Positions 8,182 through 64,000 of a DNA stretch of 64,000 nt are shown here, in pieces. This stretch comes from Raja brachyura (taxonomy: Eukaryota). Within the stretch, counting starts at the first letter, position 1, and every line of letters begins with the position of its first letter. The stretch is from NCBI GenBank assembly GCA_963514005.1, contig OY740806.1, positions 19,716,001 to 19,780,000 on the forward strand. Direction: 5' to 3'. A program made the translations under genes and the position numbers. The notes beneath the pieces were generated by a model. It saw only the letters and a program-made list of their open reading frames with translations, ran no database searches and was not told the DNA's origin.

Positions 8182-8873
8182 GTTATCTTTATTTGCAATT
8201 TAATTCCTATTGAACAGATAATTCTTCCTTCTCTCCCCCTGCCCCTTCCCTCTCTCCCCCACCCCCTTCCCCCCCCCACTCTTCCACTTCTCTCTCCCTT
8301 CCCCCACCCCTCTCCCACCACACCTCTCTCCCTCCCTCTCCCTCTCTCTCCCCTCCCTCCGTATCTCCCCCACCCCTTTCCCCTACTCCTCTATCCCACT
8401 TCCAGCACCCCCTTCCCCCCTCTCTCTCTCCCACTTCCACCACTCTCCACTACACCTCACCCTCCCTCCCCATTTCCACTTCTCTTTCCCCATCTCCCTC
8501 CCCCATCCCTCTCTCCCCCTCCCTTTCCTCCCCCTCCCCACTCTTCCCCCTCTCTCCACTTTCCCCCTCCCTCCTCATTCTTCCCCCTCCTCATACCACT
8601 CTCCCCCTCCCTCCACACTCTTCTCTCTCTCTCTCTCTCCCCTACCCCTGTCCCTACCCCTCCCTCCACACTCTTCCCCCTCCCCTTCCCCTCCCACCCC
8701 TCTCTCAACCCCTCCCTGAACCCTCTCACCCCTTCCCCCACCCCCCTCTCCTCCTCCCTCTCCCCCTCTCCATTTCCCTCTCTCCTTACCGCTCCCACCC
8801 CCTCTCTCCCACCCCTCTTCATCCCCATCTCCCCCCCACCCCCTTCCCATCGCTCTTGCACCACTCCCTGCTA

Positions 8874-10005
8874 CCCCTCTTCCCCTTTCCCTCCCCCTCT
8901 TCCCCTTTCCCTCCCCCTCTTCCCCTCTCCCTCCCCCTCTTCCCCTCTCCCTCCCCCTCTTCCCCTCTCCCTCCCCCTCTTCCCCTCTCCCTCCCCCTCT
9001 ACCTCCCCCTCTTCCCCTCTCCCTCCCCCTCTTCCCCTCTCCCTCCCCCTCTTCCCCTCTCCCTCCCCCTCTTCCCCTCTCCCTCCCCCTCTTCCCCTCT
9101 CCCTCCCCCTCTTCCCCTCTCCCTCCCCCTCTTCCCCTCTCCCTCCCCCTCTTCCCCTCTCCCTCTCCCTCTTCCCCTCTCCCTCCCCCTCTTCCCCTCT
9201 CCCTCTTCCCCTCTCCCTCTCCCTCTTCCCCTCTCCCTCCCCCTCTTCCCCTCTCCCTCCCCCTCTTCCCCTCTCCCTCCCCCTCTTCCCCTCTCCCTCC
9301 CCCTCTTCCCCTCTCCCTCCCCCTCTTCCCCTCTCCCTCCCCCTCTTCCCCTCTCCCTCCCCCTCTTCCCCTCTCCCTCCCCCTCTTCCCCTCTCCCTCC
9401 CCCTCTTCCCCTCTCCCTCCCCCTCTTCCCCTCTCCCTCCCCCTCTTCCCCTCTCCCTCCCCCTCTTCCCCTCTCCCTCCCCCTCTTCCCCTCTCCCTCC
9501 CCCTCTTCCCCTCTCCCTCCCCCTCTTCCCCTCTCCCTCCCCCTCTTCCCCTCTCCCTCCCCCTCTTCCCCTCTCCCTCCCCCTCTTCCCCTCTCCCTCC
9601 CCCTCTTCCCCTCTCCCTCCCCCTCTTCCCCTCTCCCTCCCCCTCTTCCCCTCTCCCTCCCCCTCTTCCCCTCTCCCTCCCCCTCTTCCCCTCTCCCTCC
9701 CCCTCTTCCCCTCTCCCTCCCCCTCTTCCCCTCTCCCTCCCCCTCTTCCCCTCTCCCTCCCCCTCTTCCCCTCTCCCTCCCCCTCTTCCCCTCTCCCTCC
9801 CCCTCTTCCCCTCTCCCTCCCCCACTTCCCCTCTCCCTCCCCCACTTCCCCTCTCCCTCCCCCACTTCCCCTCTCCCTCCCCCTCTCCTTTCCCTCTCCC
9901 TCCCCCTCTCCTTTCCCTCTCCCTCCCCCTCTCCTTTCCCTCTCCCTCCCCCTCTCCTTTCCCTCTCCCTCCCCCTCTCCTTTCCCTCTCCCTCCCCCTC
10001 TCCCC
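8874..10005. repeat. 20-bp polypyrimidine minisatellite (CCCCTCTTCCCCTCTCCCTC)n within a C/T-rich tract spanning about 8220-11050
   Basis: Near-perfect 20-nt periodicity over more than 1 kb. Variant units occur at the right end. Confidence 0.95.
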
Positions 10006-11700
10006 TACCCCTCTTTCTCCTCCCCTCCTCTCCCCTCCACCTCCCTTTCCTCCCCTTTTCTCCATAACCCCTCTCCTCTCACCTTCCCCTCTCCTCTCCC
10101 CTTCCCCTTACCCCACCCCTCTCTAACCCCCTCACCCACCCTCAGGGACATGCTGCCCTGCCCCTCCCCCTACACATGTGACTAGGGGGACACTGCACCA
10201 CTATCCCCCACACATGTGACTGGGGGGAACATTGCTCGCTCGCGTTGCCTTTGAAACCTTTTCCAGAACATTCTTCCCCAACGGTAATTCGGACTTCGTT
10301 TCTCGACAGCGATCGATCTAAATTATTTTTCATTTTCAAAATCTTATTATTTGATTTAGTTCGACAGGAAAGTCAACTCTCCCTCCCCTTTCTCTCTCTC
10401 CCCTTCCACTCTCTCCCTCTCCTCTCTCTCCCCCTCCACTCTCTCTCCACCTCCCCTCCCCCTCTTCCTCCTCCTCTCCCCACCACCTGTCCATTTCCTC
10501 CCCTCTTCTCCACCACCCCTCTGCTCTCATCTCCCCCTCTTCCCCCCTCCCCTTCCCCCATCGCTCTCTACTCCCCTCACCCCCCTCCTCCTCCTCCCAC
10601 CCCCTTCCCTCTCTCCCCCACCCCCATCCTTCTCTCCACCTTCCCCTTCCCTCTCTCCCCCGCCCCCTTCCCCCCTACCCCTGTGCCTCTTCCACCACTC
10701 CCCCACCATCCTCCCCTCCCTCTCTTCAACTCCCACCACTCCCCTACCCCTCTCCCCCTCCCTCCCCACTCTTCCACCTCTCTCCCTTTCCCCACTCCTC
10801 TCCCACCCCACCTCTCTCCCTCACCCACCCTCTCTCTCCCCTCCTTCCCTATCTCCCCCATCCCTTTCCCCTACTACTCTCTCCCTCTTCCACCACTCCC
10901 CCTTCCCCCTCTCTCTCTCTCCCACTTCCGCCACTCTCCCCTATACCTCTCACCCTCCCTCCCCACTTCAACTTCTCTCTCCCCCATCCCTCACCTCTCC
11001 CCCTCCCTCCCCCACCCCTCTCTCCCCTCCTCCCTTCCCTCCCTCCCCCCTGCAACCACACGTTGGGGGAACAGACCCAACGGGTCTGCACTTGGTCTAG
11101 TTTATTTTAAACCTGTGACCTTTAATCCTTCACCACTTCTGACAGCCTTTGACATTTTATGCACTTTGATCAAATCTTCCCTCGTCTTTCTCTGTAGACG
11201 TTTCCAATTTATCCTCATAACTGTCAACTCCTCCCAGGAACATTCTCGTGAAACGTTTCTGGACCCTCACTAAAGCCCTCGCATCCTTCTGATAATGAAG
11301 TGACACTATTTTAAACACAGACTTTCAGTTGAGGCCAAGTCAGTGTCAAAATTAACATCTCTGCTTTTATAATCTCCTCATGGAACTCAGAATTATGAAT
11401 GCATTTACAGTTATAAACCAATCCCTTTACGTTCCGTGGCGACACAAGAGATTGCAGTTGCTGGAAATCTTGAGCAAATAAACAAAACTGCTGGAGGAAC
11501 TCAGCAGGTGATAAACATCCTGCTCAGGATCCTCCAAAGGTTTGTTTTGTTACTTTCACTTTCGATGACACATACACCCAGAGATCTTTATGATGTTAAA
11601 CTCTTATTGGAACGCAGGGCTGCCAACTCTCACGCATTGAGCATGAGACTCACGCATTTGATGAAATGCTCACGCTGATGTCAGAAGTTCTCACGCTCAA

Positions 11701-14112: not shown

Positions 14113-17100
14113 TTGTTTAATTTCTTTTATTAGAAGTAATCGATTTACAATATTGTAAACAGTTTTGCAAACATCAACTTAATTCTAAATTTTTTTTTAA
14201 ATAACCCATTGAAAGTTATTATCTTCTATTTTTTAGGAAAAAAAGATAGAGATAGAGTAGTTTTAAATCAATAAGAGAGTGATTAAATAATAATTTGATT
14301 ATATAAAAGAGAAAAAGAAAATAGAAAAAGAAAATAAGGTTACCAGAAAAATAAAAATATATTATATATATATATATAAATGAAAAACAACCAAATATGT
14401 TTTATCTAAAACTATTACAAATAATAGTATCAATGAAGACATGCTTATTAATCCTAGTATAAGAATATGTTATTCTCATCAAGTCCCGCAGGGTACCCGT
14501 CAAGCTGTGTTGTCAAGAGCAGCTACTTCTCTAGGTACTGTATATATGGAGACCATATTTGTTCGAAAGAATTATATTTGTCCAGTAGGACAAATCTGAT
14601 TCTTTCCAATTGTAACGTCTCCAACATTTCTGCCGCCCACATTTTAATTGTGGGGGTTAAAGTTCCCTTCCAAAATTTCAATATTAATTTTTTCCCTATT
14701 ATCAAACAGTAATCAAAGAAATTTCTTTGATTTACTGTAAGGACCGAGTTTGAATCCAAAATTCCAAGTATTATTATCTTTGGGTCTGGATCCAATCTAA
14801 TTTTAAGAACCTCAGAGATAACCTTAAACATTTCTGTCCAGTAATGATTCAATTTGGAACATGTAGCAAAACTGTGTGTTAAATTTGCTTCTAAATTCTT
14901 ACATTTATCACAAATTGCAGAGAGATTGGGAAAGATACTATTTAATTTAGTTTTTGAGTAATATAATCTATATAATACTTTAAATTGTATCAATGTATGT
15001 CTGGCATTTAACGAACACCGATGTATTTGCTGTAAACTTTCTTCCCAAATTTCTTTTGTTATGGATAACCCAATTTCTTTTTCCCATACTTGCCGATATG
15101 TTTCAGCTGTTCGTTTCTCCTTATCCAAAATTATGTTATATATATATGCTATTAATTTTTCTGTATTTGGATGTAAATTAAACACATCATCTAATAATCC
15201 TGGTACTTTATTTTTGTAATCTTGTGTGTTGGATTTTATATAATCTCTAATTTGTAAGTACCTAAACAAATGTTGCGGAGACAGTCCGTAAATCTCTAGT
15301 AACTCTTGAAATAAAAGAAATTTTCCTTTACTATAAAGGTATTCTATCCTTTTAATTCCTAAATCATCCCAATGTCTAAACCCTCCATCCAATATAGAGG
15401 GTCTAAATAATGGGTTTTTCGTTATTGGTAGTCTGAGTGAAAGATTATCTAATTGTAAAGTCTTAACTATTTGTTTCCAAATACGTCTATTATTATAAAT
15501 TATAGGGTTATCCCTATACATTTTTTTTTGTACATCCTTTGGAGCAAAGAGAATCGAGCCTACCTTATAAGGTAAACAATCTTCCTTTTCCATCTTTAAC
15601 CACATTGGTTCCTGATCCACATTTACCCACCAAAAATTCATATTCTTAATCTGAACTGCCCAAAAGTAGTATAAAAAATTTGGAAGTGCTAATCCTCCAT
15701 TTATCTTAGATTTACATAAATGTTTTTTACTTATTCTATGATTTTTATAATCCCAAATAAAACTATAAATAATATTATCTATTTTTTTTTTTTAAAGTCT
15801 TTGGGGAAAAAAAAAGGAATAGCCTGAAACAAATATAATAATTGTGGTAAAAACACCATCTTTATAGCATTTATTCTACCAATCATGGATATAGGAAGTG
15901 TTTTTCAATACAGAATATTTTTTTTAAGTTTATCTAATGATAGAGGGTAATTAGATTTAATTAGCGAATTATAAGATTTAGTTACATTAATTCCTAAATA
16001 TTTAAATTTGTCTTTAACTAATTTTAATGGATATTGTTGTAATATGTTTAAATTAATTCCTGTTATAGGCATAATATCACTTTTGTTCCAATTAATCCTA
16101 AATCCTGAAAACGTACCAAATTTAGTTATAACATTAAACAGCTTTGGTATACTAATTTCCGGTTTTGTAATATAAATCAACACGTCATCTGCATATAAAG
16201 ATATTTTGTTGGTTGTAGTGTCGGTATTATAGCCATAGATTTCAGGTTCAGATCTGATTCTTTCCGCCAAAGGCTCTATCATCAAAGCGAATAATAAAGG
16301 CGATAATGGACATCCCTGTCTACAACCCCTAAAGAGTTTAAATTTAGCTGATAACATTTGATTAGTTAAGATTCTTGCCGTTGGATTCAAATATAGAATT
16401 CTTATCCATTTACAGAATCTATCCCCCAATTGATACTTTTCCATTATATTAAATAAATATAACCATTCCACCTGATCGAATGCTTTTTCCGCATCTAGCG
16501 ATATAACTGCTAGTTCCCCATCCCGTACTTTTTTTGAATATATAATATTAAACAGGCGTCTAAGATTATGGGATGAATAGCGTTTTGGAATAAAACCTGT
16601 TTGATCACGATGTATTAATTTAGAAATCACTAAACTTAATCTCTGAGATAAAACTTTAGTTAATATTTTTTGGTCTGTATTCAGAAGTGCGATCGCTCTA
16701 TATGATCCTGGATCTTCCAAATCCTTATCTACCTTAGGTATGAGTGTAATTGTGGATTCGTTTAAAGAGTCTGGTAATTTGCCTTGTTCATATGCGTATC
16801 TATATACTGTATGTAGTCTTGGGGAAATCAAGTCTTGAAATTTTTTATAAAATTCGGCACTCAGGCCATCAGGGCCCGCTGCTTTTCCATTCTTTAACAA
16901 ACTAATTGCTTCTTCAATATCTTTTACTGTTATTTCAGCGTTTAACAAATGTCTACCTTCCTGATCTAGATTGTTAATTTGACACTCTTGTAAAAATGTA
17001 TCCATACCAACTGTTTGGCCTGTTACCTTAGATGAATAAAGATTTTGATAGTATTGTAAAAATCTGTCATTAATATCTTTTGGTATCGTCAATATATTTC

Positions 17101-18421
17101 CATCCGTAGATCTAATTCTATGTATCAATTTTTCATCTGATTTTCTAAGCTGTCGTGCTAACAGTTTTTGTGGTTTGTCTCCAAACTCAAAGTACACTTG
17201 CTTGGTTTGTTGAAATAGTTTAATGACTTGATTAGAATATATTTTATTAAGTCTATATTTAGCTATTGCAATTTTATTACTTAGCTCTTTAGAAGGGTGT
17301 TTTATGTTTTCACTGTCTAGTTGTTTTATCTCATTTTCTAACTTTTGTTCCAGCTTTCTATTTTCTTTATTAAAATGAGCCTGTGCTGATATTATTGCAC
17401 CACGCATATACGCTTTAAATGTGTCCCAAAGTAATGCTGATGAAACCTCAGGTTTGTCATTAGTTTCAAAAAATAATTTAATCTGTTCCATTACGTATTT
17501 ACAACAGTCTTTATCCTTTAATATCTGGGGATTAAATCTCCAAGTAGTCATTTTATTAAGTATATCTTTTAGTTTTATCTTGAATGTTAGTGGCGCATGA
17601 TCTGAAATAATAATATTATGATATTTTGCGTCATATGTAAAAGGTAATAATTTTGAATCTACTAAAAAATAATCTATCCTGGAGTAGGTTCCATATACAG
17701 GCGAAAAAAACGAGTATTCTCGTCCGGATGGATTATCTAGCCTCCAAATATCTTTAACATTAGATGTACTTATAAAAGAATTTATAAGTTTACTTGAATT
17801 AGAGGTAGCTTTCCTTTTTGTAGAAGACCTATCTAAGGTGCAGTTAAAATCACCCCCAATAATTAAATTATATTGAGTGGAAATAGGAATATTATTAAAT
17901 ATTTTCTTAAAAAATAATGGATTATCAAAATTAGGGGCGTATATATTCACCAAAATTACTTTCTGTGAATATAATTCCCCTGTAATTATTACATATCTAC
18001 CCTCTTTATCCTCTATTATAGAAGTTTGTTTAAAGGGTATACCTTTCCGAATAATTATTGCGACTCCTCGAGATTTGTGTATAAATGAAGAGTGATATAC
18101 CTTAGAAATCCATTTTGCTGTTAATCTATGTTGGGCATCTCTTTTAAGGTGCGTCTCTTGGAGGAAGATCACGTCTGATTTCAATCTGTTCAACAATGCT
18201 AGCATCTTTCCCCTTGTAATTGGTTCGTTAATTCCCTTAACATTCCAACTACAGAAGGTAATTCCACCCCCCACAGTCTTCACATTCATGTCTTGCATTT
18301 TACTGTTAGGGTGGTTTTTTTTGGAGTAGCCTTCTCGACCCCTCCAGCCTAGCGGTATACCCAAACGCCAACCCGATGAGAATTTCTATCCACAGTAATC
18401 CATATACATATCTTCTTAAAG
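14113..18421 (-). mobile_element. L1-clade LINE, 5'-truncated, near-complete but disrupted ORF2 (APE endonuclease, RT, Cys-rich C-terminus)
   Basis: SWNVKGIN, FLQETHL, GGDFN, YSRIDYF, SDHAP, SLDAEKAFD, GCRQGCPLSP, LYADD and CDKC..H...C. Stop at 15905 and shifts in A-runs. AATAAA and A-rich tail near 14115-14130. 8-bp TSD. Confidence 0.95.
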
Positions 18422-26503: not shown

Positions 26504-26570
26504 ATGGGTGGATTACCAAGCATCATCCATGTTATCTTATTAACATTCATACTGGAAGCAAATTCTGAGA
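26504..26570 (+). CDS. Ig gene A, first coding exon: signal peptide MGGLPSIIHVILLTFILEANSE
   Basis: Acceptor tttcttttcag before 26492 and ATG at 26504 (gaaATGg). Hydrophobic leader, then a GTAAGT donor at 26571 in phase 1, typical of IgSF leader exons. Confidence 0.85.
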
Positions 26571-29165: not shown

Positions 29166-29474
29166 GCATTAAGCATTTAAAAGTCACCCTGATATCCGGC
29201 AGACAGGGATCACTGAAGTGTCCCCATTCATTAAAGAACACAGATCAAAATTATATTTCGTACTGGAATAAAGAAGCTGAAACAATTTGCTATGTGAATT
29301 TCAACGGGAACGCTGATGTACAAGGGTGTACTGCATTGCAACTTCACGTAAAGGAAGGAGAAATTACCTTAACTATTACAGAAGTGAAACACTCAGATTT
29401 TGGGAACTACACTGGCTACTTGTACACAAAAGATGAACATTTTGAATGCAAAGTTAACTTGCTTGTAAGACATG
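29166..29474 (+). CDS. Ig gene A, V-type Ig domain exon (SIKHLKVTLISGRQGSLKCPH..YISYWNKE..ITLTITEVKHSDFGNYTGYLY..FECKVNLLVRH)
   Basis: Long poly-T tract plus AACAG acceptor and G|GTAGGT donor. The exon is 309 nt, open, phase 1-1. It has a B-strand Cys, C-strand Trp, LTI E-strand and DxGxY motif. Confidence 0.9.
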
Positions 29475-36699: not shown

Positions 36700-38880
36700 T
36701 TATTCCGGAAGCCCCTTTTACTTACATTCTCACCAATCATAACCAGCGTGCAGATAAGGCCAATTAGTGCGCCTGACCTTGGAGTTGTTATTGAGTTCTT
36801 GTGGCTCGACCTTTTCGTGAGGCTGCTGGAGAGTTGCCAGCGGTGACAGGTTGTCTGGAAAACCAACGTAGGCATGAAGGCACCACAGCTCCCTCCTCAG
36901 CCTCGGAGTCATACAAGCCTGGCTTTGTCTGGCAGGTTGATTCTACGGCCTGATCTTGTTTTGTACTGCAGTGTGGGAGGTCATTGACAGGAAGTGTTGG
37001 GGCCTTGTGACTTTGCCTGTTCGGTGGGTGAGGTAGTCAGTTGGTTCTCGACGTAGGCTGGCTTTAACTGGTTGATGGATACGGTGTCAGTTTTTCCATT
37101 CCGATAGATCACGAAACCTTTGGGTAGGCGTTGGATGACTTGGTAAGGGCCATTGTGTGCTTGCTGAAGAGGTCGGTGGACGGCATTGTGTCGGACCAAA
37201 ACATGTGCACAAAACATGTGTTGGAGGTCAGCAGGCAGGTAGACCATTGCAGGTGTTCACCGTGTCAGTGTTGGCCTGAGTAGCTGCATAGTTCATTGTA
37301 ATCGATCGACATTCCTGCTTGGATCATAGGATCTGTCCAAGCAGAACCAGAGGCAACTGTTCACTCCAGGCCGTTCGCTTGTTGATGATACGCAATCATT
37401 CGGATCTGGTTCGTACCCAAGAGGTTGGTTAGTGTTTGAAACAGAACGGACTCGAATTGCGGTCCACGGTCTGTTGCGATCATACTTGGGACCCAAAGAC
37501 CGAAATCCATCGGTCAACAAAAGCACGGGCTATTGTTTCCGCAGAAATGTTGATAACTGGGAAAGCATCTTGCCATCTTGTGAACACAAGTGAGCAGATA
37601 TGTGTAGTTTCTTGATGGTGGGAGTGGGCTGACCAAGTCCAGGTGCACATGCTCAAAACTCATCATCAGGGGTCCTAGTGTGCCTGGAGATCATGGATTG
37701 TTGACACGGTAGACATGTCTTCACCCATAATCCAATGTCATGCTTGATGAAAGGCCAGATGAAACTTTCAGAGATTCATTTTATCGTAGCCTTCTTGCCC
37801 GGATGTGGTAAGTTGTGCAGCGTGCTGAAAACTTCTTGACACATCGTCCTAGGCACAAACGGCCTTGGTTTGCCAGTGGAAGTGTCACAGATGATGGTTT
37901 CTCTTGTGTTACCGATCGGTACATCTTCCAATTTTAGGGCTGTATGTGTCCGATGGTAATGGATGAGATCGGGATTAGTATGTTGCACGCGTGCCATGGC
38001 ATAAAAATCAATAAGTGTGGCCGCATTCAGAGCCTCGACCTCCAGTCTTGATGGGGCATCGGCAACCGATGTCACTGGAGAATTGCAGAACGATGTCCAA
38101 GTGGCGGATTTCCCCTGGTGAATCGTTCCCCACACTTGTACAAGTAGTGTCTGTGAACGGTTGGTGATCCGTATAAATGGTGAATTGACGGCCTTCCAAC
38201 AGATGGCGGAAATGCTTGCCGGCGAGGTACATAGCTGAAAGTTCTCGCCCGAGCGTCCAGTACCTCATCTGAGTGGGTGATAATTTTGCCGAAAAGAATG
38301 CCAGAGGCTCCCACCTGCAACTGACTCGTTGCTCCACGACGGCACCCACGACGTTGATGGTGGCATCAGTGGTGAGTGAAAATACGGCACTGGGCTTCTG
38401 ATGGACCAGTAGTTGTGTCGGCGAGAGTCCTCTTAACGGCTTTGATGGCTTGCACAGCATCCTCAAGTAAACCAACGGTTTCTTTGAAGACTATTTGTCT
38501 GAACCTTTGAGTCAGTTGGTAGAAAGCGGCGGTAGAAATACATCATCCCCAAAAATTGCCATAATTGATTTAACAAATTTGGCACTGGGTGGTTTCTGAT
38601 TTCCTGCACCTTTCATTCGCCGGGCAGGATTCCATTCTCAGTCACGCGATGCCCGAGGAAAGTGAGTTCACGAGCGGCAAACACGCATTTGTTCGTGTTA
38701 ATGGCAGTAACATATTCGTCAAGACGCCGGGACAATATTCCGAGGTGTTTCTTGTGTTCGCCTTCGCTGGAGGTCACTACCAACATGTCATCGATGTATG
38801 CATAGACTAAACCGAGGCCGGAGAGTACATGGTCCATGAAACGCTGGAACGATTGTGCTGCGTTCCGTAACCCAAATGCT
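36700..38880 (-). mobile_element. Degenerate Ty3/Gypsy pol remnant (RT, RNase H, integrase) in intron of Ig gene A
   Basis: YAYIDDMLV, LTTDA..VGAV, PLAFFSAKLS, FRHLLEGRQFTIYTDHQP, LHNLPHPG and GPYQVI, in Gypsy order with frameshifts. Confidence 0.88.
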
Positions 38881-39259: not shown

Positions 39260-39304
39260 ATAGCAGAATGTTACCTGGTTCTCATGGCATTTGTACAACA
39301 GCAG
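39260..39304 (+). CDS. Ig gene A, stalk/GPI omega-site exon (DSRMLPGSHGICTTA)
   Basis: ccattttattacag acceptor and CAG|GTATGA donor. 45 nt, phase 1-1, open. Confidence 0.75.
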
Positions 39305-41497: not shown

Positions 41498-41559
41498 GTC
41501 CGTTCTTGCTGCTACTGCCAATTGCTGTGGTCATTTGGAATTTTCCATTCCTCTTGTAG
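41498..41559 (+). CDS. Ig gene A, terminal exon: hydrophobic GPI-signal tail GPFLLLLPIAVVIWNFPFLL*
   Basis: cttctattcttttcag acceptor, phase 1. A 19-residue mostly hydrophobic run ends at TAG with no cytoplasmic tail. Confidence 0.75.
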
Positions 41560-45117: not shown

Positions 45118-46725
45118 CAGTGGCTTGCAAAAGTATTCATACCCCTTGAACTTTTCCACATTTTGTCACGTTACAACCACAAACGTAAATGTATTTTATT
45201 GGGATTTTATGTGATAGACCAACACAAAGTGGTGCATAATTGTGAAGTGGAAGGAAAATGATACATGGTTTTCACATTTTTTTACAAATAAAAAACTGAA
45301 AAGTGTGGCGTGCAAAAGTATTCAGCCCCCTTTACTCTGATACCCCTAAATAAAATAGAGTGCAACCAATTGCCTTCAGAAGTCACCTAATTAGTAAATA
45401 GAGTCCACTTGTGTGTAATCTAACCTCAGTATAAATACAGCTGTTCTGTGAAGATCTCAGAGGTTTGTTAGAGAACATTAGTGACCAAACAGCATCATGA
45501 GGCCCAAGAAACACGCCAGACAGGTGAGGGATAAAGTTGTGGAGAAGTTTAAAGCAGGGTTAGGTTATAAAAAAATATCCCAAGCTTTGAACATCTCACG
45601 GAGCACTGTTCAATCCATCATCCGAAAATGGAAAGAGTATGGCACAACTGCAAACCTACCAAGACATGGCCGTCCACCTAAACTGACAGGCCGGGCAAGG
45701 AGAGCATTGATCAGAGAAGCAGCCAAGATGCCCATGGTAACTCTGGAGGAGCTGCAGAGATCCACAGCTCGGGTGGGAGAATCTGTCCACAGGACAACTA
45801 TTAGTCATGTACTCAACAAATCGGGCCTTTATAATAGAGTGGCAAGAAGAAAGCCATTGTTGAAACAAAGCCATAAGAAGTCCCGTTTGCAGTTTGCCAC
45901 AAGCCATTTGGGGGACACAGCAAACATGTGGAGGAAGGTGCTCTGGTCTGATGAGACCAAAATTGAAGTTTTTGGCCTAAATGCAAGACGCTATGTGTGG
46001 TGGAAAACTAACACTGCACATCACCCTGAACACACCATCCCCACTGTAAAACATGGTGGTGGCAGCATCATGCTGTGGGGATGATTTTCTTCAGCAGGGA
46101 CAGGGAAGCTGGTCAGAGTTGATGGGAAGATGGATGGAGCCAAATACAGGGCAATCTTGGAAGATAACCTGTTAGAGTCTGCAAAAGACTTGAAACTGGG
46201 GCGGAGGTTCACCTTAGGACAACGACCCTAAACATACAGCCAGAACTACAATGGAATGGTTTAGATCAAAGCATTTTCATGTGTTAGAATGGCCCAGTCA
46301 AAGTCCAGACCTAAATCCAATTGAGAATCTCTGGCAAGGCTTGCAAATTGCTGTTCACAGATGCTCTCCATCCAATCTGACTGAGCTTGAGCTATTTTGC
46401 AAAGAAGAATGGGCAAAAATGTCAGTCTCTAGATGTGTAAAGCAGGTAGAGACATACCCCAAAAGACATGCAGCTGTAATTGCAGCGAAAGGTGGTTCTA
46501 CAAAGTATTGACTGGGGGGCTGAATACTTTTGCACACCACACTTTTCAGATTTTTATTTGTAATAAAGTTTGGAAATCATGTATAATTTTCCTTCCACTT
46601 CACAATTATGCACCACTTTGTGTTGGTCTATCATATAATCCCAATAAAATATATTTACGTTTGTGGTTGTAACGTGACAAAATGTGGAAAAGTTCAAGGG
46701 GTATGAATACTTTTGCAAGCCACTG
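45118..46725 (+). mobile_element. Full-length Tc1 (DD34E, IR/DR-type) DNA transposon, 1608 bp
   Basis: TA|CAGTGGCTTGCAAAAGTATTCATACCCCTTG...CAAGGGGTATGAATACTTTTGCAAGCCACTG|TA, with TIRs of about 210 bp containing internal direct repeats. Confidence 0.97.
45497..46511 (+). pseudogene. Tc1 transposase, inactivated by a nonsense codon at 46082-46084 and a small deletion near 46215
   Basis: Paired-like HTH, GRPPKL, WSDETK, KHGGGSIMLWG*, (Q)DNDPKH and [15 protein letters not shown]. Confidence 0.93.
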
Positions 46726-49120: not shown

Positions 49121-49280
49121 GTCGGACAATTTGCTTAAGGCTATTGGAAAGCAAAAAGAAAAATGGCAAGACGGCTGCCAATTTGAAACGAAGGTCATCC
49201 ATATAATCTGAGAACTAAAAGGTTTGCACAGCTGCAAGGGAAAATTTTTCATATCACAGCATGGAGCGATTACCAGCAAT

Positions 49281-50448
49281 TTGGACCCTTGAAGACCGAA
49301 AAAGGTGAATTTATTATAGGGAACAAGGAAATGGCAGATGAGTTGAACAGGTACTTTGGATCTGTCTTCACTAAGGAGGACACAAACAATCTTCCTGATA
49401 TAGTAGTGGCCAGAGGATCTGGGGTGACAGAGGAACTGAAGGAAATCCGCATTAGGCAGGAAATGGTGTTGGATAGACTGATGGGACTGAAGGCTGGTAA
49501 ATCCCCAGGGCCTGATGGTCTGCATCCCAGGGTACATAAGGAAGTGGCTCTAGAAATTGTGGATGCATTGGTGATAATTTTCCAATGTACCATATACTCA
49601 GGATTAGTTCCTGTGGATTGGAGGGTAGCTAATGTTATCCCACTTTTTTAAAAAGGTGGAAGAGAGAAAACAGGCAATTATAGACCAGTTAGCCTGACAT
49701 CGGTGGTGGGGAAGATGCTGGTGTCAATTATAAAAGATGAGATAGCCGCTCATTTGGATAGCAGTAACAGGATCGGTCTGAGTCAGCATGGGTTTACGAA
49801 GGGGACAACATGCTTGACTAATCTTCTGGAATTTTTTGAAGATGTAACTAGGAAAATGGACAAGGGAGAGCCAGTGCATTTAGTATACCTGGACTTTCAG
49901 AAAGCATTTGATAAGGTCCCACATAGGAGATTAGTGGGCAAAATTAGGGCACATGGTATTGGGGGTAGAGTGCTGGCATGGATAAAGAAGTGGTTGGCAG
50001 ATTGGAAACAAAGAGTAGGGATTAACGGGTCCCTTTCAGAATGGCAGGCAGTGACTAGTGGGGTACCGCAAGGCTCAGTGTTGGGACTGCAGCTATTTAC
50101 AATATACATCAATGATTTGGATGAAGGGATTCAAAGTAACATTAGCAAATTTGCAGATGACACAAAGCTGGGTGGCAGTGTGAACTATGAGGAGGATGCT
50201 ATGAGAATGCAGGGTGACTTGGACAGGTTGGGGGAGTGAGCAGATGCATGGTAGATGAAGTTTAATCCAGATAAATGTGATGTTATCCAATTTGATAGCA
50301 AAAACAGGAAGGCAGATTACTATCTACATGGGGTCAAGTTGGGAAAAGGGGAAGTACAACGGGATCTGGGGGCCCTTGTACATCAGTCTGTGAAAGTAAG
50401 CATGCAGGTGCAGCAGGCAGTGAACAAAGCGAATGGCATGTTGGCCTT
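49281..50448 (+). mobile_element. CR1 LINE ORF2 RT fragment, followed by an inverted CR1 tail (about 50455-50535)
   Basis: [39 protein letters not shown] and KFADDTKL, with stops. Confidence 0.93.
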
Positions 50449-51099
50449 TAGAATCATAGAAAATCATAGAATCATAGAAAATCGGTGCAGGAGGAGGCCA
50501 TTCGGCCCTTCGAGCCTGCACCACCATTCAATATGCAAGTAGTCTTGGGTTCACTCCATTACCATAAAGTCATGAAAGGGTGATGTGGCTGAAGAAGGGT
50601 GTCGACCTGAAATGTCACCTATCCATGTTCTCCAGAGATGCTGCCTCACCTGTTGCGTTACTCCAGCTCTTTGTGTCCTTTAGTGTATTAACCTGCATCT
50701 GCAGTTCCTTGTTTCTACACCTTATTCCAAGTTAGCATTCAAGGCAGTATCATAGTAAATTAGATTCCACAATTAAAGAAATGCTTAATTTAACATTGCA
50801 TGCATGATGTGGAATGTATCATGCTGAAACAAACCATTTAAGCCAACAGCGGCAATGTCACGGTCCCCACAAATCATCTCCGTCGCTAACACTTTCTCAC
50901 TCCACAGATGTTTCCTCAACAACTGGCGGTTCTGCCATTTTCTCTTGTTATTTTAGAGTTCCAGTGCCGTTTTTTTAAATTATCAGGATGTTGGTAAATA
51001 TTGGCTATTTTATTAGGGAATTAAAAGGAAACAATGACATTTTGACATTTTGTATTTTGTGAGAGTTTGTTTCATATTTTCATAATTATTTAATTCCTT

Positions 51100-51510: not shown

Positions 51511-52999
51511 ATTCAGTAAATGATGCACATGGATTTCTTCCATGAATGATCCTTGCCATTCAGTCAGGGAACTCCAGCAGGAAGATTGTGGTTTTGTAGT
51601 CTTCACTGAGCCGGAGGATACAATAGAAAATGAATTGCAGGAAGCCGTAGCCCGAGAAAATACTTTTAACTTCATATATTTCCCAAGAGGGGATAACCAA
51701 GGTTCTTATTTGACACTTGGAACATCTCTTTCACATTTGGTTCTATTCAGGGTTGTCAGTTCTAACAGACTTCAATTCATGGAAGTGTTTTGTGGATTTT
51801 TATGTTACTCAGTCACACTCTGATCATTGACTCATTCTTGTCCTCAGACAATTTTCCCAAATCAGAATCATGGCTTGTGAAATCATTGCTTTCTTCATCA
51901 ATACCTTTTGTAAGACATTTATGATATTGAGGGAAAATGTAGTTCTGTTTAGTACCATTGTGGATTTTCTGATGAGCTATTCACTGAATTTCATGAAGGC
52001 TTTTCTTTAAATCAAAGATGACGAGAAAGGTTGACAGTCCAAACAGCATCTGATATTGCTGGATAACTACTTTACCTGACTGTGGCAGTAATTAAAAATA
52101 CTGAACGAGCGCACACTAAGTGACATCTTGTGAACATGTCTAAACTTCCAATTCTCTAACAAATGAAGAGATGTGCTTTATTTATACCAAATTATTATAA
52201 CATGCAGAGCAACATTTCTGACAGTGCGTTCTCTGGAGAGGTAAACTCTCCTGTGAGCTGTACACTAAAACAATGCTTCAGCAGAGTTACTCATATGCGT
52301 TAATTTCAAAAGAGGTACACACTCAAAATTCCATGTTACAGGTAATGTTCCATTGATGTAGATGCTGGTAAGTTAAACTCAAATCTAATATTGTTTTCAG
52401 TGAGTTTAATGGTTTCTAAAACAATGCACATTTATGATAAGGTAGACAAAAATGCTGGATAAACTCAGCGGGTGAGGCAGCATCTATGGAGTGTGGGAAA
52501 TAGGCAACATTTCAGGTCGAGACCCTTTGGAAGGGTCTCGACCAGAAACGTTGCCTATTTCTTTTGAATGCAAAGGAAGCTTGTTAGCCTTTGTAAACAC
52601 TTCCAGCCAATGCAAGATATACCTTATGGAACTATCTTAGTGAGAAGGAGTAGGGGGTCGGAGAGATCAGGAAAATGGTCAAACAATTATACCAAATGTC
52701 AATTTCAGATATCAACGTCTAAATGTCTGAACGTCTGTTGCAAGTACTTTTTAGCCAATCTGTGGAAATAATTTCAAACACATGTCACCTCATTTAGATC
52801 CATCACCTATTGGGACTTTATTGGCTCTTGATATAAAGTTTAAAAATAAAAAATAAAGCTATCCACGAAGAATAAGCCATCTCTTTATTACCTTTCAGCT
52901 GAGAGCACAAGCTCATGAGAAAATTTTTTATTTGTAGGGGACCAAAAGATTGAGGAATGGAAAAGTTACATTTACCAAAGAAAAGAAAATCCACTTGTT

Positions 53000-53475: not shown

Positions 53476-53575
53476 TCAGAATTCAGAAGTAATTATGTTG
53501 TCTTTTTGGCTATTGACATTTTCTGGAGAGTCACTTTTGGCCAATCTGCTTTGGTTCCTGTGCTGCTTTGAGTTC
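53476..53575 (-). CDS. Ig gene B, terminal exon (RNSKQHRNQSRLAKSDSPENVNSQKDNIITSEF*)
   Basis: Strong acceptor ctatttttctttctcattag. Phase-2 entry is open to TGA at 53478-53476. AATAAA signals lie downstream (52932-52927 and 52822-52817). Confidence 0.7.
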
Positions 53576-56402: not shown

Positions 56403-56427
56403 CTCCATTTGCACAAGCAGTCCCGAT
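56403..56427 (-). CDS. Ig gene B, small cytoplasmic exon (DRDCLCKW)
   Basis: ccttttt attgtatag acceptor and GAG|GTAAGC donor. 25 nt, phase 1 to 2, matching both neighbours. Confidence 0.7.
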
Positions 56428-56548
56428 CTATACAATAAAAAGGACACATTATTAGGGAAATTCTCCCATACGTATCATTTTTTTCATCTGCAATCTGATT
56501 GTCATAATATAGAAAATTTGTTTTTATTTAATTGCTTTGACACATTTG

Positions 56549-58443
56549 ACACAGGCAAACGGCCTGGTGGGGAGGTTCCACCGGCAACTCAAGGCAGCGC
56601 TGAAGGCAAGACTCTCAGCCCGGACTGGATGGAAGCACTGCCGTGGGTCTTGCTGGGCATCCGAACTGCGCCGAAGGAGGTCATGGGCTCAAGTTCAGCG
56701 GAGCTCGTTTATGGGTCGCCGCTCACGGTGTCCAGGGAGTTTGTGTCGTCGGCGTCGGGGCAGCAGGGACTGCTCATTCATCCTACAGTGCCTTCGCGAG
56801 CAAGTCGGCAGGCACCCGCTAGCGCCGACAACCCGCCATGGGACATTCCGCCCGCACGTGCCAACCACCTTCCGGAACTGCCCCGGTTTTCCTGCGCCGT
56901 GTCGCCAACCGGACGCTGCTCCAGAGGCCGTATGTAGGTATGTTACAAATCTTACGTTGACCCGCGCTGCAGTTCTGCCGCTCCCCGTGTGCGCGACATT
57001 AGCAGCTTTCAGAGGGGGGCGGGCTTAAAGTGCCGTTTTTCCACAGGCAGGGAAAATCGATCATGTCGGGCGTTTTTGTTGCGGAAGAAAAATCGTTCCG
57101 ACATTTCACGAATGAAGGTATTTTTAAATTACGCTAAATTATTTATTAACTAGAGTAATTTAAAAATCACCTTCAAAAGCCGTGAGCACCGACAACCGGA
57201 AAGATTTTGCGTAGGGGAGAAAAACAGGTAAATTGTTTATTTTTATATTAAAAGTTGGTTTTTTTGGGAGGCTTTAATAATATTTTCATGTTGCGAAATG
57301 TGGTCCAAAAAAATGTATGAACAAACAGTATTTTTCCTCCCGACTTCACAGCAAACCGCAACGTTCTAATCCACCGCATTCCGCTAAAACCCACTCGCGT
57401 TGATTTAAATGGCCATTAATTTACAGGCATAAAACACTAAATTCCTTCCATTTGGCCCAGAAATTCATGAAAATTAGATTTTAAAATTATGTTATATTGT
57501 GGATTATTGTGTGAATGTTATTTGGACACTTAGGCAATTTAAAAAAAGTTTATATTTTCTTAAGAAATGGATAGATGTTTAGATCTACTCATTGAATTTT
57601 GTAATTAGCTACAATTAGATAACTAACTAATTATATGTTTTAATTTCAGGTCATCCAAGTAAGATTTTTTCATATTTGTTTCAGAATGCTTCAATCTATA
57701 ATAACTGAAAATTCCATTGAGTTCTCTTAATTTTTAAGAAAGTTATGAGCTTTTAACTGTTCCAGATCACAGCTTTTGAGTTAAGTCAATTGAAAGGCAA
57801 TGGGGAACAAGATGCTAATTTCCGAGTATGAAAATGGCCATAACTTTCTTAATACTGAAGATATGAAAGTGAATTAGGTGTCAAATTAAACTTCTTTTTA
57901 TGCTTTATCTGATGGGATAAATTGCAGACTTGATTTTTTAAATCTCAAAATTTTGTAATATTGCTACAGTAAGAGGGCCCGTTCCGATTGCTGGAGCACA
58001 GACAGACGACCTTTGTGTTGGACATGGGGGGGACGGCTGGAGGCCGTGTCGATTGACCGGTTAAAGCCGGCACACTTGGACATTGACCAGCCGGTGCTGG
58101 TTGCCCAGCTCATCTGTGAGGTCGCCCCTCTTCGCAGCTCCCTCCTCCTGTCCCTCCATCTGTGCCTCCACCGGCCCCTCTGTCGGCCGATTTCCGTACG
58201 CGGTCCGGTCGTGTTGTACGCCCACCGGTACATTTCGTGCCTCCTGTTCTGGGGGGGGGGGGAGCTGTGACGGGTCTCAAGGGTCGGGCTATTCCTCTAT
58301 CGAACCCCTCGGCATGAGAATGAACTAGTCCGGGGGCGGCCCTTAGCTACAGGGATAAAGGGCAGGGGTTTATGCGCGATTGTTCTCTTGCAGACCCGAC
58401 TCTCTGATTATTGCATGTTGCCACACTCTATTCAACTGTAACA
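56549..58443 (+). mobile_element. Gypsy integrase C-terminus, polypurine tract and 3' LTR (58266-58443), split by a DNA transposon
   Basis: QANGLVGRFHRQLKAAL, LPWVLLGIRTAPKE, SSAELVYG, QRPY/EGPF and VSIDRLKPAHLD. G-run PPT, then TGTGAC...GTAACA. Confidence 0.85.
56933..57968. mobile_element. Non-autonomous DNA transposon with imperfect TIRs of about 18 bp
   Basis: TGTAGGTATGTTACAAA ... TTTGTAATATTGCTACA. It interrupts the Gypsy PY|EGP codons. Confidence 0.7.
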
Positions 58444-58807: not shown

Positions 58808-58885
58808 CTTTCCTGCAGCAGAGCAGTAACAAAATCAGAGTCGTCATGAAGATTGGCACCGTTACAAATCGGACAGGGAAATGAC
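58808..58885 (-). CDS. Ig gene B, transmembrane exon (SHFPVRFVTVPIFMTTLILLLLCCRK)
   Basis: tttgttgtcttacag acceptor and AAG|GTAAAT donor. 78 nt, phase 1-1. Hydrophobic helix followed by CC and a basic stop-transfer. Confidence 0.85.
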
Positions 58886-60863: not shown

Positions 60864-61184
60864 TTTTCCAATCTGATGTCACGTATACTCTCACAGAAGA
60901 TTCTTTGGTGCCATATGAATTGTAAGCTCTGCAGATATACTTTCCATTGAAGGAATCATCGATCTTCTCTTTCTGCAGAATTGAATGACTTAATCCAATA
61001 GACAATTGTATCCTTTCAGTTTGGTCTCCTGATTTCATCCAGATGACCGTGGATATTGGATTACTGTCCGTGGTACAATTTAGTTGAAGATATGACTGAG
61101 GTTCAACATAGATGAATTCTTGGAGCAGAGGCTGCAATTGATGCGCAATAGAATTCCTGTAATGTATTGCTGGCTGTGGACCAT
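60864..61184 (-). CDS. Ig gene B, I/C2-set Ig domain exon (YGPQPAI..LQLNCTTDSNPISTVIWMK..DSFNGKYICRAYNSYGTKESSVRVYVTSDWK)
   Basis: 321 nt, phase 1-1, A|GTAAGT donor. Pyrimidine tract with a GAG acceptor gives a YGP junction. Contains C..SNP....W and GxYxCxAxNxxG motifs. Confidence 0.88.
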
Positions 61185-63498: not shown

Positions 63499-63825
63499 AA
63501 TTAACGTTGAGTGTTATGTGTTGCATTATCCACTCTTTGCTTGTTGCATGAAGGACCTGACAAGTAAAAACTGTCCTGTGGTCTTGCAAAGTGGGAGTAA
63601 AACTAATTTGACTTGTTGCGTCAAATGTGCCATCAGAGTTCCTGGTTGGGGAGAGTTTTGTGGTAATATTAACATCTGATTTTGTAGCTTGAGTGTCGTG
63701 AGGATGTTGCCATTGCATTGTGATGTTCTCAGGATAAAATCCCCATGCATGGCAGTCCAAAACAGATGCTTTCTCTGCTATTAAATCTCCCTGAGTCATT
63801 AGAATTTTTGGTGTAGATTCTGGGA
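63499..63825 (-). CDS. Ig gene B, C1-set Ig domain exon (PESTPKI..LDCHAWGFYPENITMQW..RNSDGTFDATSQISFTPTLQDHRTVFTCQVLH..ITLNVN)
   Basis: tgttatttgttacag acceptor and T|GTAAGT donor. 327 nt, phase 1-1. Carries the C1 signatures CxAxGFYP..W, NxDGTF and FxCxVxH. Upstream exons lie beyond the window. Confidence 0.92.
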
Positions 63826-64000
63826 CTGTAACAAATAACATGAAACAAAGTTATATGTTGCGCTACATACTTACATACTTATCCTTTCGTGCTAAATTAA
63901 AAACAAAAACAAAGCATGTTAATTAGCATTTATCCACTTAATGTATATAGGTCTGAAGAATGGTCTTGACCTGAAACATCACCCATTCCTTCTCTCCAGA

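Follow-up and report, generated by a model that had tools for sequence, protein, structure and literature searches.

A 25-nt cytoplasmic micro-exon within the 64-kb stretch of DNA analysed here (hereafter the window) is confirmed by sequence comparison as a genuine, conserved piece of a gene that sharks and rays share and that encodes an antibody-like receptor of the cell surface. Its predicted product is a type I receptor with the layout V(J)-C1-I, and the exons for the C1 and I domains lie in the window. Our best reading of the product, held tentatively as a good possibility, is a receptor that pairs with an ITAM adaptor, is palmitoylated at its juxtamembrane cysteines, and has a predicted PDZ-scaffold C-terminus. 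Two elements of that reading stand higher when each is taken alone: pairing with an ITAM adaptor is probable, and palmitoylation is equally probable as the role of the cysteines. An earlier note had labelled the tail coreceptor-like; that label overlooks an invariant arginine in the transmembrane (TM) segment and a PDZ-type C-terminus, and the two cysteines of the micro-exon probably serve to attach lipid and not to clasp Lck in the CD4/CD8 manner.

Results

The receptor gene and its orthologues

The exons of the receptor gene and the other features of the window are listed in Table 1. The C1 exon scores far higher against Pfam C1-set than against C2-set_2, and its best PDB sequence matches are UrIg2, immunoglobulin (Ig) constant domains, B7-H6, and MHC. 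The window ends at position 64000, short of the V exon and leader, and we infer the V domain of its gene from the sawshark orthologue, which has the layout V-set, C1-set, I-set, TM, tail; the V domain of that orthologue closes with a J-like GxG strand and finds its best matches among Ig light chains. The window gene is closest to the stingray orthologue: exon by exon, the residues identical between the two number 73/108 (C1), 64/107 (I), 16/26 (TM), 5/9 (micro-exon), and 15/32 (last exon).

Table 1 Positions of the receptor gene's parts and of other features of the window
Feature	Positions	Strand	Remarks
Ig C1-set exon	63499..63825	minus	phase 1/1; Pfam C1-set E 1.5e-12
Ig I-set exon	60864..61184	minus	phase 1/1; Pfam Ig_3 E 1.1e-7, I-set E 1.5e-7
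TM exon, 78 nt	58808..58885	minus	phase 1/1
Arg codon of the TM exon	58871-58869		outer end of the hydrophobic stretch
Cys-Cys at the TM end	58820-58815	minus
Branch-point-like CTAAT	56451..56455	minus	28 nt upstream of the micro-exon; pattern match only
Cytoplasmic micro-exon, 25 nt, two cysteines	56403..56427	minus	phase 1 in, 2 out
Cysteine codons of the micro-exon	56419-56417 and 56413-56411	minus
Last coding exon	53476..53575	minus	phase 2 in; tblastn with the stingray orthologue E 1.2e-4
Ser-Glu-Phe before the stop	53487-53479		end of the last exon; class I PDZ-binding pattern
Three AATAAA hexamers	52817..52932	minus	540-660 nt past the stop; candidate polyadenylation signals by pattern alone, the DNA being AT-rich
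Exons of the convergent neighbour gene	26504-26570, 29166-29474, 39260-39304, 41498-41559	plus
C/T-only low-complexity tandem repeat	8220-11050		about 2.8 kb; extreme GC skew
Transposon remains	14523-18385	minus
Transposon remains	37500-38870	minus
Transposon remains	45485-46511	plus
Transposon remains	49187-50542	plus
Transposon remains	56513-58330

A word-indexed search of longer proteins for homologues of the C1 exon returned nothing; a full HMMER search with the same exon gave 658 matches, mostly distant multi-domain proteins, of which four were close. Orthologues came from about five other shark and ray species, namely the stingray Hemitrygon akajei (XP_072885644.1), the sawshark Pristiophorus japonicus, Hemiscyllium ocellatum, Chiloscyllium plagiosum, Scyliorhinus torazame, and S. 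canicula, with tails available in four. Counts for the tail are therefore given for five gene models (window, stingray, sawshark, bamboo shark, and catshark); models P0100 and P0158, which are without TM and tail, and the C1-only fragments P0002 and P0151 were left out of them. The databases label the orthologues Siglec, sialoadhesin, or syg-2-like.

Identity between rays and sharks across the ectodomain is about 45-68% per exon. These searches, which would miss distant relatives, found no bony-vertebrate orthologue; no paralogue was found in the window, and none beyond one gene per species among the 163 proteins compared. In the ESM Atlas the I exon and the V domain of the orthologue matched nothing more specific than generic Ig clusters, and an AlphaFold2 model of the sawshark protein (6-row alignment) was set aside, with a mean pLDDT of 43 and a TM region below 50. 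Several gene models are odd. The S. canicula model (P0158) joins V straight to the I domain and skips C1, and both it and P0100 read through the donor of the I exon; these oddities reflect either alternative splicing or model error. Residues 1-46 of the stingray model P0007 resemble a LINE reverse transcriptase that the window contains, and the N-terminus of that model is probably a false first exon, an error of the gene model.

The micro-exon and its reading frame

The micro-exon lies between an AG acceptor, preceded by a 70% pyrimidine tract, and a GTAAGC donor, and its in-exon codons read RDCLCKW. In a home-made splice-site score it comes second among 717 open candidates for an exon in the 5.2 kb that separate the TM exon from the last exon, behind an 18-nt candidate that follows a poly-C run at 58243. 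Among the 11 open 25-nt AG..GT segments it is the best match to the orthologue peptides, with a score of 51 against 15 for the next. The 41-residue tail that includes the micro-exon scores 87, 58, 55, and 41 against the four orthologue tails, all of them taken from database gene models, and 0/1000 shuffles reach each of these four scores. The frame that results from skipping scores -25, -37, -39, and -18 against the same four tails; because it fails to align with them, we reject exon skipping as the main form. When the 3123 open 9-mers of the interval are ranked free of any splice constraint, the top 6 do not include the micro-exon peptide, so that support for the micro-exon comes from its splice sites, length, and frame, and peptide similarity alone does not single it out. 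The 64-kb window holds no second copy of the micro-exon, which leaves a repeat origin unsupported. The dedicated 25-nt exon proposed in the earlier note is thus borne out by splice sites, phases, and a frame-dependent alignment with orthologues, and the spliced tail reads LLCC-RKDRD-CLC-KWR, exactly as first claimed.

Two cysteines with a sliding register

The nine-residue peptide of the micro-exon is DRCFLCNRR in stingray, DRYGPCNCR in sawshark, DRYCPCNSR in bamboo shark, and GWCGPCNSG in catshark. The cysteine at position 6 is invariant (5/5 species), and a second is present in each, at position 4 (window and bamboo shark), 3 (stingray and catshark), or 8 (sawshark), so that the invariant cysteine comes second in the pair except in sawshark, where it comes first. 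What survives of the CC...CxC motif described in the earlier note is therefore the pair itself: CxC occurs in 3/5 species, in two registers (4+6 and 6+8), CxxC (3+6) occurs in the other two, and the CC at the TM end is found only in the window and catshark. That note had taken a lack of CxC conservation to count against its Lck reading, and the orthologue tails go half of the way there. Extra cysteines vary between species both at the TM end and further down the tail.

About 10 residues at most separate the exon cysteines from the membrane. An acidic residue (Asp) stands ahead of the first cysteine in 4/5 species; the wider region is net basic, with 4-6 Lys or Arg per 17 residues around the cysteines in the four orthologues. 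Most of the residues found in place of cysteine (Tyr, Phe, Gly, Trp, Arg, and Ser) are one base from a Cys codon, which makes it plausible that an ancestral Cys-rich exon is decaying or turning over. Near the membrane, CxC or CxxC occurs in 0/14 unrelated type I Ig tails (11 clusters) and, with looser filters, in 0/92 unrelated Ig proteins, a crude and unnamed background that shrinks from 92 proteins to 14 once tails longer than 250 residues are dropped.

The absence of such motifs from this crude background would suit the idea that the two cysteines clasp the CxxC of Lck through zinc, so that the receptor, like NKR-P1C, would carry a kinase of its own to its ITAM adaptor; we judge this unlikely. 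In common with its counterpart in CD8α, the micro-exon is short, comes right after the TM exon, and encodes two potential zinc ligands, and its phases, 1 then 2, are those of the motif-bearing exon in the 13/13 CD8α tails of PMC10768021 (Suppl. File 7). The CxC-Lys of the window is also seen, without a following proline, in the CD8α of lungfish, frog, and chicken, so that the missing proline need not be fatal to a clasp, and the RYCPC of bamboo shark is one residue from the RYCPH of 4/8 chondrichthyan CD4 tails. The CD8α-Lck interface is moreover described as needing few contacts besides zinc (PMC12198760). However, the 13 CD8α tails in that Suppl. File 7 all keep a fixed Cx(C/H), as CxH in 8 and CxC in 5, after a basic run and with an acidic residue before the first cysteine in none (0/13), whereas the receptor described here has a sliding spacing and an Asp before its motif. 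In addition, its motif lies a few residues nearer the membrane. CxH is used by all 3 chondrichthyan CD8α and all 8 chondrichthyan CD4 tails (PMC10768021), and no such histidine occurs here. We consider a clasp less likely because the second cysteine moves among positions 3, 4, and 8, a shift that a fixed tetrahedral interface should resist, and because the change of ligand order in sawshark and the CxxC of two species weigh in the same direction. The Lck-recruiting tail proposed earlier thus retains its CD8α-like phases and its constant pair of cysteines and is weakened by the spacing and the preceding acid. The ectodomain was rightly taken to be other than that of CD4 or CD8: CD8 has a V domain plus stalk and CD4 has four Ig domains, none of them C1, whereas in this gene a C1-set and an I-set exon come before the TM exon and the orthologue is V-C1-I, which rules out identity with the CD8α or CD4 coreceptor.

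An Lck-recruiting tail outside CD4 and CD8 does have a precedent, in that rodent NKR-P1 recruits Lck on an unrelated ectodomain: NKR-P1C and NKR-P1A (KLRB1) are described as combining an FcR-γ-pairing TM arginine with an Lck-recruiting dicysteine, CxCP (PMC4041007). These proteins differ in being C-type lectins with a CxCP(R/H) consensus and have no homology to the receptor, and only under the Lck reading would NKR-P1 be a functional analogue. A related proposal, that receptor and coreceptor are united in one chain, with an arginine for the ITAM adaptor and an Lck clasp whose ligands slide between CxC and CxxC, is distinctly unlikely.

Palmitoylation suits the sliding register of the cysteines better than a clasp does, and it was the fallback of the earlier note, which spoke of a multi-palmitoylation cluster. 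Palmitoylated juxtamembrane clusters of varied spacing are described for CD4 (Cys419/422) and CD80 (Cys261/262/266/271) (PMC13270668). Counting against this fallback, and against our best reading as a whole, exactly two exon cysteines in 5/5 species would suit a metal site too.

A different kind of metal or redox site would be one in which the cysteines bridge two copies of the receptor, by Zn(Cys)4 or a redox-sensitive disulfide; the two halves would change together, so that both CxC and CxxC would be tolerated. Two cysteines in each of the five species with free spacing would fit such a bridge, which we regard as decidedly improbable: membrane-proximal cysteines are usually acylated. Precedents on its side are the Zn-mediated homodimers given by the tail cysteines of CD4 (PMC12198760) and the report that UrIg2, a non-rearranging VJ-C1 protein, is a homodimer (PMC12227049).

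Transmembrane arginine and C-terminus

The two marks of an Arg-type adaptor-paired receptor are both found, namely a conserved arginine at the outer edge of the TM segment (5/5 species) and a short tail, of about 40 residues, without ITAM or ITIM. A phenylalanine three residues before the arginine is likewise invariant (5/5). Tyrosine is absent from the tails of the window and catshark and occurs singly, at differing places, in the other three. In NKp30 and NKp46 a TM arginine is described as mediating pairing with CD3-ζ or FcR-γ (PMC6514059). The arginine of the receptor could nevertheless be a plain boundary residue, because only 18-19 uncharged residues follow it before the next charge and, in 4/5 species, a proline stands five residues past it.

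PDZ-binding ends are typical of adhesion molecules more than of adaptor-paired NK receptors, a point against our best reading. The C-termini of the five species are SEF, SEF, TEF, SKL, and SEL, all of which follow the class I PDZ-binding pattern, C-terminal X-S/T-X-hydrophobic (PMC7138185); ends of this type occur in 1/14 and 3/92 of the background Ig proteins. That enrichment is what a CADM/CRTAM-like adhesion or polarity receptor would show, in which the arginine would mark the membrane edge, the cysteines would be palmitoylated, and the PDZ ligand would be the working end. The V-C-I layout of three domains is shared with CADM proteins, and an identity of about 45-68% per ectodomain exon between ray and shark is low for adhesion molecules. 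CRTAM, an Ig receptor with a C-terminal PDZ ligand, binds Scribble through that motif (PMC7210543). An adhesion receptor is nonetheless improbable: besides the low identity, the TM arginine is invariant, the C1 domain is of antigen-receptor type by its Pfam scores and PDB matches, and the orthologue V domain matches Ig light chains. The arginine, the dicysteine exon, and the antigen-receptor-type C1 set the gene apart from CRTAM and CADM.

Expression in leukocytes is a further expectation that we infer for the receptor. A marker sheet for bamboo shark liver, spleen, and kidney (PMC11372145) has cd8a as a T-cell marker; among its 8,645 rows the database name of the orthologue does not appear, nor do descriptions of Lck or NCR3. 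The sheet is of low sensitivity, so its silence is weak evidence on expression; such as it is, the missing name tells against a clasp for Lck, and its absence among immune cluster markers would suit an adhesion receptor.

Placement among Ig receptor families

The gene belongs, as judged from its domains and in a broad sense, with the non-rearranging VJ-C1 genes (UrIg, UrIg2, and PRARP): a J-like GxG strand in the V domain followed by a C1-set domain is found in orthologues P0037, P0100, and P0158. The best PDB match of the window C1 exon is UrIg2 (E 2e-13, summed over several domains); identity with it is ruled out by the nine C1 domains reported for UrIg2 (PMC12227049). A C1 domain followed by this I domain was not seen in the other C1 matches compared. 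SIRP, too, has VJ then C1, and SIRPα is the best PDB match of the full sawshark protein (E 4.7e-15). The SIRP ectodomain is V-C1-C1, and SIRP is ruled out by a third domain that scores as I-set/Ig_3. The gene differs from SIRP, UrIg, UrIg2, and PRARP alike in having an I-set rather than a C1 third domain, no ITIM, and arginine as its charged residue.

Siglecs have a sialic-acid-binding arginine on the F strand of the V domain, followed by C2-type domains; this database label is ruled out, since the F strand of P0037 is without that arginine and domain 2 is C1-set. The FG loop in the V domains of P0037, P0100, and P0158 has a conserved Tyr-Pro-Pro followed by GxG, which resembles CD28, CTLA-4, and CD28X, the last with the motif YxCx6PPPx4/5GxG (PMC11599192); a B7-family ligand is a lead only. 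Membership of the CD28 family is described in terms of a single V domain, PPP or EIP, and a cytoplasmic tyrosine motif (PMC11599192), and is ruled out here by three Ig domains, PP rather than PPP, and the lack of a conserved tyrosine. NKp30 (NCR3) shares a non-rearranging V domain and a TM arginine with the gene; NKp30 and the CD28 family are single-V receptors, whereas the gene has two more Ig domains and a PDZ-type end.

Other features of the window

The convergent neighbour gene encodes a product of 160 aa with a signal peptide, one V-set domain without the F-strand cysteine, a short stalk, and a hydrophobic end without a tail, for which a GPI anchor is predicted. It matches Rhinoraja longicauda LOC144608712, to which its V domain is 66% identical and its leader, stalk, and end 90-95%, a difference that suggests fast evolution of the binding domain. 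With a skate match for this neighbour and the stingray as closest orthologue of the receptor, the window is probably skate or ray DNA. The transposon remains include a LINE whose endonuclease-RT frame spans 826 aa, along with a Tc1/mariner transposase and another RT fragment. LTR-retroelement-like pieces were recognised by eye, one of them in the intron that separates the micro-exon from the TM exon.

Discussion

If the receptor is paired with an adaptor and palmitoylated, as we tentatively favor, its V domain would bind a ligand and its TM arginine would pair with an ITAM adaptor, FcR-γ or CD3-ζ, so that signalling would pass through the partner chain. The micro-exon cysteines would be palmitoylated and anchor the tail at the membrane, the C-terminus would bind a PDZ scaffold, and any Src-family kinase would be reached through shared lipid domains and not through a zinc clasp.

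Non-rearranging VJ-C1 genes are regarded as relics of antigen-receptor precursors (PMC10751288; PMC12227049). To these genes the receptor adds a VJ-C1-I layout and a tail that combines a TM arginine, a two-cysteine exon, and a PDZ end, and we did not find this layout and tail described in the limited literature compared, which was not searched by accession. Should the cysteines be only palmitoylated, the gene would be a modest addition to the list of shark immune receptors. Its natural series of tails, with CxC in two registers and CxxC, offers peptides with which the strictness of the Lck clasp geometry could readily be tested. Were the distinctly unlikely one-chain arrangement to prove true, the micro-exon and the CD8 tail exon would be sisters, and the receptor would be a model of signalling before the split between TCR and coreceptor.
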